Below are positions 21,095-22,839 of a stretch of 64,000 bases of DNA, piece by piece; position 1 is the first letter of the stretch, and the number at the start of each line of letters is the position of its first letter. The notes beneath the pieces were generated by a model. That model did not search any database and had not been told where the DNA came from. It saw only the letters and a list, made by a program, of their open reading frames with translations. Position numbers and translations under genes: made by a program. Source of the DNA: Gammaproteobacteria bacterium (GTDB lineage Bacteria; Pseudomonadota; Gammaproteobacteria; S012-40); assembly GCA_029883265.1 (NCBI GenBank), contig JAOUJM010000001.1:10511-74510 (forward strand). Reading direction: 5' to 3'.

Positions 21095-21823
21095 TCATTT
21101 ACGAGGTTCAGGTATCTCCACACCTCGCTGCTTTAACGCGGCTAAGAGTTTTTCATACCAAATCTGTTGACTGTCGGGAACATTTACCATTACAGCAATT
21201 TGTGCCAATCTCTCTAATTCTACAGTAGTGCCCTTTTCTAAATAAAAAAGCCCTTTATCATAACGTCCCCAGACGGCAACAACGTGATCGGCTATAGTTC
21301 CGCCTTGGTTGTCAACACCATTTAAATCGGCACCATTATCCAGTAAAAAATCAATGCGTTTCCAATTGCGTCCATTAGCTATGCGTTGTAATAATGGCAT
21401 ACCATTCCAGCAAGTGATGTTGGGGTCACCGCCATGGCGTAACAATATTTTTAGATAGTCGATGTCGTCGGCTTGTGCAGCAAGTTCCATAGCTGAAAAT
21501 TCAATATCGGTTTTGTAATTCGGATTCGCACCTAGCTGTAATAGTTTTTCCAAACCTTTTTTGGCTTTCGCAGCAATCAGCCACATTAAGGGTGAGAGGC
21601 CTTCGGATCCGACCGCATTCACATTGGCACCTGCTTTTACTAATCGATCGACTTCGGCAAAATCCTCGTCAATGGCGGCATAGATCAATTGTGAATCCAA
21701 CGGCTTTGAAAACGATTGTTTCGCGGTTAAGCCACCCAGTTTTAATTCACCACAGGCGCTACACATGAAACTCATGCCGAATAAAAGAAATAAGTATTTT
21801 CGGAGTTTTATATTTTGAATCAT
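21095..21823 (-). CDS. Ankyrin-repeat protein with N-terminal signal/lipoprotein-like sequence; putative periplasmic immunity protein for the lipase-type toxin (cargo of element B)
   Basis: 242 aa. Signal MIQNIKLRKYLFLLFGMSFMCSAC. At least 4 ANK repeats (GANVNAVGSEGLSPLMWLI, GANPNYKT, GGDPNITCWNGMPLLQ, GADLNGVDNQGGTIADH). Starts 23 nt after the giant ORF stop with an AAGGTGA SD. Confidence 0.7.
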   Translation of the reverse strand: MIQNIKLRKYLFLLFGMSFMCSACGELKLGGLTAKQSFSKPLDSQLIYAAIDEDFAEVDRLVKAGANVNAVGSEGLSPLMWLIAAKAKKGLEKLLQLGANPNYKTDIEFSAMELAAQADDIDYLKILLRHGGDPNITCWNGMPLLQRIANGRNWKRIDFLLDNGADLNGVDNQGGTIADHVVAVWGRYDKGLFYLEKGTTVELERLAQIAVMVNVPDSQQIWYEKLLAALKQRGVEIPEPRK

Positions 21824-21846
21824 GCTTCACCTTAATTGCAGATCAA

Positions 21847-22839
21847 TTATTTAAACGCGTTGATAAAATATTGCATATCGTGCAAATCCACAGGGTCCAA
21901 ATAACTTTGCCATGGCAAGGGCTGTTTCGCTTCATTTACGGCCGGTACGGCAATACGAGTGCCTGCGGCTTCTGGCATTTGTCCGGGGCCAAAACGATGC
22001 CAGCCAATGTCCCTACCATAAGATACATCATTAAGTGCCATAACAGCCGCGAGTAAATTTTTTGGGACTGTACCCCATTGGTTGAGGACGGAGTCCACCA
22101 CTGGACTAGCCTGGAGTGTGCTCAATATTTCACCCGGCGTATAGAATGCGTAAACATTTTTCTTTAAGTGATTCCGATCCATTCCATAGCGCTCAATTGT
22201 ACCATCACTGAGTCCTGCCGCGTTAAAGGTAACCGCACTGGATTTCAACCTGCCAGCTTGTGCCGAAGCAATGCCGCCACCGAGGGAGTGACCGGTAAAG
22301 GTTAGTGGTGATGAGCCTAACGCTATTTGAAGATCAATTGCAAGATTGATCCCAAATTCATATTGGGTCGAATTGAAATCGGATCCTTGAGCAATACTTG
22401 CTACTGCATCTTTAACCGCTTCATGCCGGCCCAATTTCGTATCCGTTCCTCGATTGGCGAATATAAATTCGCTTGTGCGATAATTAAAATAGAGTGCGCC
22501 TTGGTAGCCACTCTTCTTATCTACAAAATTTTCAGGTTTCATATCCAGGACATCAATAAAATCCCTACCCATGCGGTAAATATCCTCAGTGACTTTCTTT
22601 GGTTCCTTTCCGGTGTATTCTTGATAAACATCGTCAGATACCATAGCGTTTTCATACCAATCAAGGCTTCCACTAAAGTCCAGTCTGATTGGAGCGGCAC
22701 TAGCAAGCTGCGAGTTATATAGCGTTCCGTTTTCATCAACTAGCTGTCCGTTCTTGAATGTGAGTATCGGTTTGGTTTCAACGGCATCGGATGATTGTCT
22801 ATAAGGAATTTTGCCTGGGGCAGAGTTTTGGACGCTTAC
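21847..22839 (-). other. Transposon-encoded C-terminal toxin domain of the giant ORF (aa 6055-6384): alpha/beta-hydrolase lipase/phospholipase-type (GxSxG)
   Basis: VSVQNSAPGKIPYRQ...YQGALYFNYRTSEFIFANRGTD...LTFTGHSLGGGIASAQAG.... Nucleophile elbow GHSLGG preceded by an (A/F)xxRGT strand, as in class-3 lipase-like effectors. Confidence 0.7.

Follow-up and report, generated by a model that had tools for sequence, protein, structure and literature searches.

Introduction

Tle and Tli of Enterobacter cloacae are the closest described relatives of the predicted toxin-immunity pair reported here. Tle (ECL_01553) is a phospholipase whose lid helix is sequestered by Tli (ECL_01554), an ankyrin lipoprotein of six repeats (Jensen et al., 2023, bioRxiv 10.1101/2023.03.28.534661; Nat Commun 2024, PMC11470151). 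Internal start codons yield a cytosolic form of Tli, which is needed to activate Tle via a methylglyoxal crosslink between Arg180 and Lys461 that joins the N- and C-terminal helices (Jensen et al., 10.1101/2023.03.28.534661, PMC11470151). Ankyrin lipoprotein immunity genes always accompany the Tle family, which is also found at the C-termini of Rhs proteins (Jensen et al.; 10.1101/2023.03.28.534661, PMC11470151); the preprint places related lipase domains at Rhs C-termini and on VgrG, PAAR, DUF4150 and CdiA, each linked to an ankyrin gene (10.1101/2023.03.28.534661). Here we describe a divergent pair of this kind at positions 21095–22839, on the minus strand of a 64,000-nucleotide stretch of Gammaproteobacteria contig JAOUJM010000001.1 (the window, to which all coordinates refer unless a contig is named). 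Its lipase module forms the tip of a giant YD/RHS-repeat protein, its second gene encodes an ankyrin-repeat protein, and both lie inside an insertion sequence (IS) element of the IS66 family.

Tips of Rhs and CdiA proteins are reportedly replaced by recombination with downstream orphan toxin-immunity cassettes, as Poole and colleagues in 2011 and Koskiniemi and colleagues in 2014 are said to have described. Insertion sequences that carry passenger genes are termed "transporter IS" in ISfinder usage. Periplasm-acting phospholipases are also represented by the T6SS (type VI secretion system) effectors Tle1 to Tle5, which are countered by Tli immunity proteins of the periplasm (Russell et al., 2013, as cited in PMC11470151). 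In the full-text literature we found no toxin tip that is borne in frame by an IS66 element.

An IS66-family element in a giant toxin gene

The element that carries the pair, designated element #2, spans 18733..22839 (4,107 bp); its cargo lies between tnpC and the right inverted repeat (IR) and is encoded on the minus strand. Its left IR (18733–18755) begins at 18733 with GTAAGCGTCCTAAACTCCGCACC, and its right IR (22817–22839) has the minus-strand sequence GTAAGCGTCCAAAACTCTGCCCC and ends at 22839; the repeats are 23 bp long and match at 20 of 23 positions. A perfect 8-bp target-site duplication, CTGGCCAT, flanks the element at 18725..18732 and 22840..22847. Between the IRs lie the plus-strand genes tnpA (18817–19173), tnpB (19140–19523) and tnpC (19554–21044). 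Allowing up to three mismatches, we found four such inverted repeats in the window and none further, against an expectation of zero from 100 shuffles. Homologs of TnpC carry PF03050, PF13817, PF13005 and PF13007, a 100%-identical protein is named "IS66 family transposase", and the tnpA-tnpB-tnpC module contains the family's DDE_Tnp_IS66, zf-IS66, LZ_Tnp_IS66 and TnpB_IS66 domains. IRs that start with GTAAGCG and an 8-bp target duplication are typical of the IS66 family. Element #2 therefore resembles its family in its three-gene transposition module, its Pfam domains, its GTAAGCG repeats and its 8-bp duplication, but differs in that some 1.8 kb of passenger DNA separate tnpC from the right IR, and in that this passenger consists of a start-less toxin domain, open through the IR, and an immunity gene.

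A search for repeats in the window recovered two IS66-type tnpA-tnpB-tnpC copies, 78–87% identical at the DNA level in three 300-nucleotide (nt) blocks. It also recovered a 33-nt match that ties 10468–10500 to 22808–22839, the latter inside a giant open reading frame (ORF) on the minus strand (21847..41001, 6,384 amino acids [aa]) that encodes a YD/RHS-repeat protein. The carrier part of this ORF, 22840..41001, corresponds to residues 1–6054. The cargo toxin module follows at 21847..22839 and comprises 330 codons and a stop (residues 6055–6384; coding span 22839 down to 21850, stop excluded). The right IR is translated as VSVQNSAP in the reading frame of the giant protein, and its last base, 22839, is also the outer boundary that the preliminary description had given for the pair. 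We found no in-frame ATG, GTG or TTG before codon 66 of the cargo ORF, and codon 66 itself sits within a conserved helix of the lipase domain and has no ribosome-binding site. A complete lipase can therefore be made only by translation that enters through the repeat from the host gene. No promoter-like site above chance was found between the right IR and the ankyrin ATG, the interior of the lipase ORF included. By these sequence features, an IS66-family element with the pair as its start-less cargo gave a giant toxin a new tip in frame, an arrangement for which we found no published precedent.

Removal of the element in silico revealed what it had displaced. Deleting 18733–22847, that is, the IS and one copy of the duplication, produced a single 6,350-aa ORF that ends at 17834 in a TNT domain, with ...NGGKTYNGYGQ joined to EVDLPLTLAGHS at the restored junction. 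The original tip (17834..18732, minus strand) thus comprises a linker and a TNT domain of the NAD+ glycohydrolase type (Pfam TNT, 2.3e-20). The insertion point falls in the linker that connects the pre-toxin region to the toxin, and the new tip is of similar size to the old one (330 versus 296 residues). The preliminary description had spoken of a displaced TNT toxin, and the restored ORF bears this out. We tried and rejected homologous recombination with the downstream orphan array as the cause, because the giant gene and the 21 kb downstream resemble each other in neither protein nor DNA sequence, the IS repeat excepted. The likeness to Rhs/CdiA orphan-cassette replacement lies in the outcome, a new C-terminal toxin with its immunity gene and an old tip and immunity gene left downstream as orphans; the difference is that here no homology block is shared and the junction consists of an IS end and a target duplication. 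Hence the reading of the locus is refined: as reconstructed from the ORF and its junctions, it was transposition of an IS66-family element, not orphan-cassette recombination, that displaced the TNT tip.

Downstream of the old tip, a 97-aa ORF (17560..17853, minus strand) with a weak Imm59 match (E 5.9e-4, below the gathering score) is probably the immunity gene of the displaced TNT toxin. It lacks a signal peptide, so the contrast in compartment between the TNT toxin and the new tip, which had been proposed earlier, is real at the level of sequence.

The same insertion was present in four further contigs, from at least four samples, that are 99.98–100% identical over the pair. One of them, a 4,361-bp contig from another sample (L015), covers the whole element and both flanks and junctions at 99.98% identity, and two more cross the right junction at 100%. 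In addition, the first 99 nt of JGI contig L002 match the right end of the lipase-carrying element at 100% identity and are joined to a type I-F array of clustered regularly interspaced short palindromic repeats (CRISPR); at the same junction, contig L005 holds an element with other cargo. Judged from this 99-nt overlap at a contig end, the element with the lipase therefore occurs in no fewer than two genomic contexts.

Searches further afield returned nothing comparable. The whole element had no blastn match among the PLSDB plasmids; the species-representative genome collection matched neither the IR pattern nor peptide patterns from the N-terminal region of the TnpC alignment; and the distant TnpC relatives L006, L007 and P0124 had no clear cargo or matching IR. 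Junction peptides of the repeat-encoded kind were absent from 443 retrieved proteins. Beyond the four IRs, the orphan array contained no further solo IS ends that would mark older cargo insertions.

The lipase module and its ankyrin-repeat partner

The first eight codons of the cargo module are the translated repeat, codons ~9–60 form a linker and codons ~60–330 the lipase domain. Both motifs of the FANRGT...GHSLGGG arrangement noted earlier are present on the minus strand, FANRGT at 22444–22461 (codons 127–132) and GHSLGGG at 22273–22293 (codons 183–189). The candidate triad consists of Ser185 (22285–22287), Glu237 (22129–22131) and His320 (21880–21882), or Ser6239, Glu6291 and His6374 in giant-protein numbering, and the stop codon lies at 21847–21849. 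A phmmer search of PDB sequences retrieved 7UBZ_B/9CYS, the "T6SS lipase effector" of E. cloacae, at E 3.7e-11; it was the sole match with E<0.4, the next one having E 0.45. An AlphaFold (AF2) model, built on an alignment of 61 sequences, had a mean confidence score (pLDDT) of 80.5, and Foldseek ranked 9CYS_A first for it (E 7e-11), followed by fungal lipases and feruloyl esterases.

Ser185, Glu237 and His320 share alignment columns with Ser341, Glu393 and His448 of Tle, and the motif TFNAAG is common to the two proteins in the same alignment. Among 10 aligned relatives including Tle, the Ser of GHSLGG and the His are invariant, and the acid column holds Glu, or Asp in two of them; the 61-sequence alignment, too, has no variation in Ser or His. 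The triad call comes from these alignment columns. Taken together, the sequence and model matches identify the C-terminal module as a predicted class-3-lipase-type alpha/beta hydrolase with a conserved Ser-Glu-His triad, in agreement with the (phospho)lipase type first suggested.

Relatives of the lipase were numerous but distant. We found 238 at E≤1e-3 among 5.8 billion proteins, of which the best were just 33–41% identical. PF26363 ("Phospholipase-like") is annotated on all 120 listed homologs, and a precomputed PF26363 match (E≤1e-5) exists on the 6,384-aa product; the local Pfam copy, from which this family is absent, gave no direct score for the lipase domain. The assignment by hidden Markov models that had been proposed as a check succeeded with the precomputed PF26363 match and stayed sub-threshold with the local Pfam and NCBIfam models. 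A family profile search recovered 18,566 clusters (50% identity) at E≤1e-3, which include domains at or near the C-terminus of proteins of 3.7–7.3 thousand residues. The lipase is a common toxin module. Membership in Tle1–Tle5 was considered and rejected, as the lipase had no match to a solved Tle1, Tle4 or Tle5 structure at E≤1.

The ankyrin gene (21095..21823, minus strand; 242 aa) follows the giant ORF after a spacer of 23 nt, with a Shine-Dalgarno AAGGTG 5 nt before its ATG. As the preliminary description had stated for the next gene, its product combines a signal-peptide- and Cys-containing N-terminus with ankyrin repeats. In the N-terminal sequence MIQNIKLRKYLFLLFGMSFMCSAC, a basic n-region is followed by a hydrophobic core (Kyte-Doolittle >1.8 over residues 10–24) that leads to a lipobox-like MCSA-C. 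Cys24 (21752–21754) aligns with the lipobox Cys (...G-C) of the closest relatives, and most relatives at 35–40% identity have a signal peptide that ends in ...G-C. Pfam detected Ank_2 (8.3e-12), Ank (2.8e-11) and Ank_4 (3.6e-11), all above gathering scores. The AlphaFold model (pLDDT 90.8) contains five ankyrin helix pairs (residues 41–196) and a C-terminal helix pair (203–232), so the earlier count of at least four repeats was correct but conservative. No Shine-Dalgarno-like sequence was found before Met17 or Met20.

Foldseek comparison of the ankyrin model with the PDB placed E. cloacae Tli (9CYS_I, 7UBZ_A) second by E-value, and 9CYS_I was the best full-length match, with template modelling (TM) scores of 0.66/0.69 over 231 columns. 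Sequence-specific orthology with the Tli-like protein of Serratia was tried as well and set aside; the similarity is weak (29% over 150 aa) and swamped by generic ankyrin similarity. Structure and gene linkage are more informative than sequence for the kinship of the ankyrin protein with Tli.

Gene linkage extends to relatives elsewhere. An ankyrin relative of 39% identity (P0244) is encoded directly after a 606-aa protein (locus L012) whose lipase domain is also 39% identical to ours (E 1e-43), so lipase and ankyrin proteins travel and diverge together. Further lipase relatives with an ankyrin gene following were found at loci L009 and L001.

Comparison with described systems

Compared with Tle6-Tli6 (E. 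cloacae Tle/Tli, PDB 9CYS and 7UBZ; Serratia marcescens Slp), the pair shares the lipase fold, the GHSLGG elbow, the Ser-Glu-His residues and TFNAAG. It also shares an immediately downstream ankyrin-repeat gene of ~240 aa with a predicted signal peptide and a Cys, whose model superposes on Tli over the full length. The differences are considerable. The ankyrin protein has five repeats and a cap where Tli has six repeats, the lipases are ~24% identical, and the DUF8093 (PF26362) N-terminal domain is missing here. The lipase is the tip of a YD-repeat protein of 6.4 thousand residues, whereas Tle is a 472-aa T6SS cargo effector, and no T6SS genes lie nearby in the window regions that were scanned. 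The Arg-Lys pair of the methylglyoxal crosslink (MODIC) and the long C-terminal helix are absent, alternative ankyrin starts have no ribosome-binding-site support, and the pair lies inside a transposable element. Lipase tips on Rhs, VgrG, PAAR, DUF4150 and CdiA likewise combine a C-terminal lipase on a polymorphic-toxin carrier with an ankyrin immunity gene, but those are contiguous with their carriers, whereas this one is joined through a translated IS inverted repeat, by transposition. With Tle1–Tle5, the pair has in common the predicted logic of a GxSxG lipase that acts on the envelope and is neutralized by an exported immunity protein; it differs in the lack of a sequence match at E≤1 to any solved Tle1, Tle4 or Tle5 structure, and the ankyrin immunity fold is specific to the Tle6 group. 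By sequence and structural model the pair is thus a divergent addition to the already described Tle6/Tli6 family. This naming refines the earlier reading, as does the fact that a Tle6/Tli6 immunity protein also activates its toxin, a role absent from that reading.

The giant carrier

The carrier has an N-terminal DUF6531 domain, no fewer than 17 matches to RHS/YD repeats, LysM domains and a pre-toxin region in which a hydrophobic segment (residues ~5786–5818) is accompanied by glycine-rich stretches. Pfam matches were RHS_repeat (2.6e-75 and 1.9e-39) and DUF6531; YD_repeat_2x was found with NCBIfam and TEN_YD-shell among precomputed matches. The protein therefore has the YD/RHS shell and N-terminal plug-type domain of Rhs polymorphic toxins. 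No PAAR domain was found in it, and inspection by eye did not find an Rhs C-terminal autoproteolysis motif (DPxGL) just before the toxin.

Several related proteins carry the same kind of lipase without an IS. P0363 (5,424 aa) is like the carrier in its N-terminus and LysM/pre-toxin layout and has a native C-terminal lipase of the PF26363-type family, P0371 (7,290 aa) has such a domain near its C-terminus, and in the L012 protein, which lacks an IS, a portion of the pre-toxin region is joined to the lipase. This lipase is therefore a payload that occurs naturally on carriers of this class.

The pre-toxin region at ~23100–24000 (residues ~5700–6054) is conserved with P0363. Its order is LysM, the motif NxxDxFKPYxxxExxGxTxPxMP, the hydrophobic and glycine-rich segment, and the linker, and it takes the place of the usual Rhs core end. 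The region may be a membrane-translocation or release module.

Related elements and surrounding genes

A second IS66-family copy occupies 6847–10500; its TnpC is 87% identical to that of element #2 at the protein level and its right repeat is the same. Its cargo is a 251-codon ORF (9745–10500) that is open from the repeat (VSVQNSAPRKNN...) and has the lytic-transglycosylase-like motif AAQESS...GLFQMEP, followed by a 184-aa ORF (9194–9748). This copy has no target duplication (CAGTGATA versus TGGAACTA) and lies five bases after a stop codon, unfused to the upstream gene. A 275-aa ORF (6041–6868, minus strand) without a Pfam match starts inside its left repeat (VRSLGRL...). The TNT remnant likewise starts in a left repeat, and the motif VD(L/F)xLTLAG(H/S)S is common to the 275-aa ORF and the TNT module at 18721. 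The 275-aa ORF is probably another displaced toxin tip.

A third element, on ENA contig L005, has a TnpC of 66% identity and the same right repeat. Its cargo is a 290-aa toxin-like ORF without a Pfam match, in the same frame with a stop 35 codons from the repeat, and it is followed by a 239-aa ORF with a weak SUKH-1 immunity match. The CRISPR-side junction, GCTTAC then GAGCTGCGAAAATATTC (L002 1–99; L005 5495–5540), holds different elements in the two samples, and the CRISPR arrays of L002 and L005 differ by one repeat-spacer unit at the element end.

The array downstream of the giant gene (9–18 kb) contains further toxin-like and immunity-like small ORFs, most without a Pfam match and none homologous to the giant gene. 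They include an LHH nuclease (12987–13433, minus strand; Pfam 5e-9) and a nucleotidyltransferase-domain ORF (12024–12419). A junction motif, GTAGTTCCAAACAA(N5-6)TTCAG on the minus strand, overlaps the stop codons of small ORFs in this array. Copies lie, in plus-strand coordinates, at 6439 (more diverged), 11572–11604, 12526, 13531, 14663 and 17539–17571, and the second IS copy lies inside one further copy (GTAGTTCCA then IS). The motif may be a cassette boundary or recombination site.

Upstream neighbours of the carrier include TPR proteins, a sigma factor and a flagellar cluster; the segment 47101–64000, on the strand of the toxin locus, encodes FliP, a FliI-type ATPase, a hook/rod protein, a sigma-28-like factor and TPR proteins. 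Nearer to the giant gene lies a gene for a 424-aa DUF6973 protein (44815–46089, minus strand), which also matches Pfam "wnt" (22.8 versus a cut-off of 20.3 bits). A DUF6973 gene is found ~1.4 kb downstream of the tnpC of an IS66 relative as well (L007 2234–3469). Two ORFs without Pfam matches, of 491 and 310 aa, lie between the DUF6973 gene and the giant gene (42370–44809, minus strand) and might serve the giant protein as accessory or export factors.

Discussion

Our findings make it likely that the pair is of the Tle6/Tli6 kind and resides as passenger DNA at the right end of an IS66-family element, in frame in the giant toxin gene. As the sequence shows, the element (18733–22839) inserted in the 3' part of the YD/RHS-repeat toxin gene with formation of the 8-bp duplication, and its right IR, read through as VSVQNSAP, gave the carrier a linker and lipase at its end in place of TNT. 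By homology to Tle-Tli, the lipase, with Ser6239, Glu6291 and His6374, would hydrolyze membrane glycerophospholipids of target cells from the periplasmic side, and the ankyrin protein, exported and lipidated at Cys24, would protect the producer and its kin. The same homology suggests that the ankyrin protein uses the concave face of its solenoid to clamp the lipase, probably by the lid helix, and that it may also be needed in the cytosol to fold or activate the enzyme. Enzymatic activity, periplasmic site of action and neutralization are thus predictions by analogy with described relatives. From its context, one insertion step would have exchanged a cytosol-acting for an envelope-acting tip, the old TNT immunity gene being kept downstream.

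Several observations weigh against this model. The local Pfam and NCBIfam libraries yielded no lipase-domain family above threshold (Lipase_3, Thioesterase and SA1320 were sub-threshold), the significant part of the alignment to Tle, at ~24% overall identity, covers residues 111–226 of the 297-residue query, and PF26363 also includes two standalone proteins in housekeeping contexts with no ankyrin neighbour. The Arg180-Lys461 crosslink pair of Tle has no alignable counterpart in the cargo lipase, because its chain stops 10 residues past the catalytic His (terminal Lys at His+10; in Tle the Lys is at His+13, within a longer helix) and no equivalent of the N-terminal helix is predicted, the N-terminal ~60 residues of the cargo ORF being mostly non-helical and of low confidence in the model; a different pair may be present. 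As to secretion, the carrier had no match to an RHS-associated core/cleavage model (TIGR03696-type), apart from a partial RHS_core far upstream, and the scanned regions of the window held no T6SS, type V secretion system or other export genes; delivery of the fused lipase is therefore hypothetical. The in-frame fusion occurs in just one of the four observed insertions of these elements. Finally, the context of Cys24, FMCSA-C, is a non-canonical lipobox with Cys at position -3, which falls outside the classical pattern, and the signal-peptide call comes from sequence features and the alignment of relatives.

An accidental disruption, in which the element landed by chance and inactivated the toxin gene, with unselected read-through into the lipase and a fusion that is not exported or not active, is the most serious alternative, though we consider it unlikely. 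A strong target preference is not known for IS66 elements, and there is no consensus among the four flanks here; the other three insertions are unfused, that of IS#1 after a stop codon and those in L002 and L005 beside a CRISPR array; and the L005 cargo, with its stop 35 codons in, has AAGGAG just before a GTG, so that toxin may have its own start. Yet the lipase ORF, lacking a start codon before the conserved domain helix, cannot be a free-standing gene, and the insertion hit the linker between pre-toxin region and toxin in the correct orientation and frame and with a tip of similar size. Two of the four insertions fall in one toxin locus, the insertion persists in the population, as seen in at least four independent assemblies, and carriers of the giant YD/RHS class natively bear this lipase family. 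That the junction itself is a metagenome mis-assembly, a chimeric join of an IS-borne lipase cassette to an unrelated giant gene across the repeat, has a negligible chance of being correct. The source is indeed a metagenome-assembled genome and assemblies do break at these elements, with L004 ending in tnpC and L016 beginning exactly at the repeat, but the duplication is perfect, excision restores the 6,350-aa ORF exactly, and both junctions recur on the 4,361-bp contig and the right one on two more contigs.

The remaining alternatives concern function. It is improbable that the ankyrin protein is mainly an activator or chaperone or a co-delivered effector, or that the lipase is directed at eukaryotic membranes. 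Activation of Tle in E. cloacae requires cytosolic Tli, Met17 and Met20 could in principle yield a signal-less form here, and ankyrin proteins are common as anti-eukaryotic effectors, with NCBIfam matches to Legionella Ank effectors that are weak and far below cut-offs. Against this stand the signal peptide and conserved lipobox Cys of the ankyrin protein and its relatives, which point to the periplasm, and a gene order and tight spacing as in toxin-immunity pairs; neither internal Met is preceded by a Shine-Dalgarno-like sequence, and a dual role would be compatible with immunity, not opposed to it.

Whether this IS66-family lineage is an adapted shuttle for polymorphic-toxin tips, or the re-tipping was a lucky accident that selection preserved, seems to us evenly balanced. 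As a shuttle, each element would carry, against its right IR, a toxin domain open through the repeat together with an immunity gene, and transposition into the 3' region of a toxin gene would swap the tip and bring the matching immunity at once. Copies beside a CRISPR array or in an array of orphan cassettes would then be silent reservoirs or immunity-only islands.

As a divergent member without the Arg-Lys pair, the lipase is a natural case in which to ask whether activation depends on the immunity protein throughout the Tle6/Tli6 family. The intact target duplication and the exactly restorable ancestral gene show that a single transposition can install a tip and an immunity gene on a delivery protein, here exchanging, by predicted activities, a cytosol-acting NAD+ glycohydrolase for an envelope-acting lipase. 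If the elements are adapted for tip delivery, they would explain the spread of unrelated toxins between carriers that share no homology, and an ORF open through an IS66 right end would be a simple signature for new toxin-immunity pairs. Should the shuttle reading hold, the locus would represent toxin diversification based on transposition, distinct from recombination with orphan cassettes.

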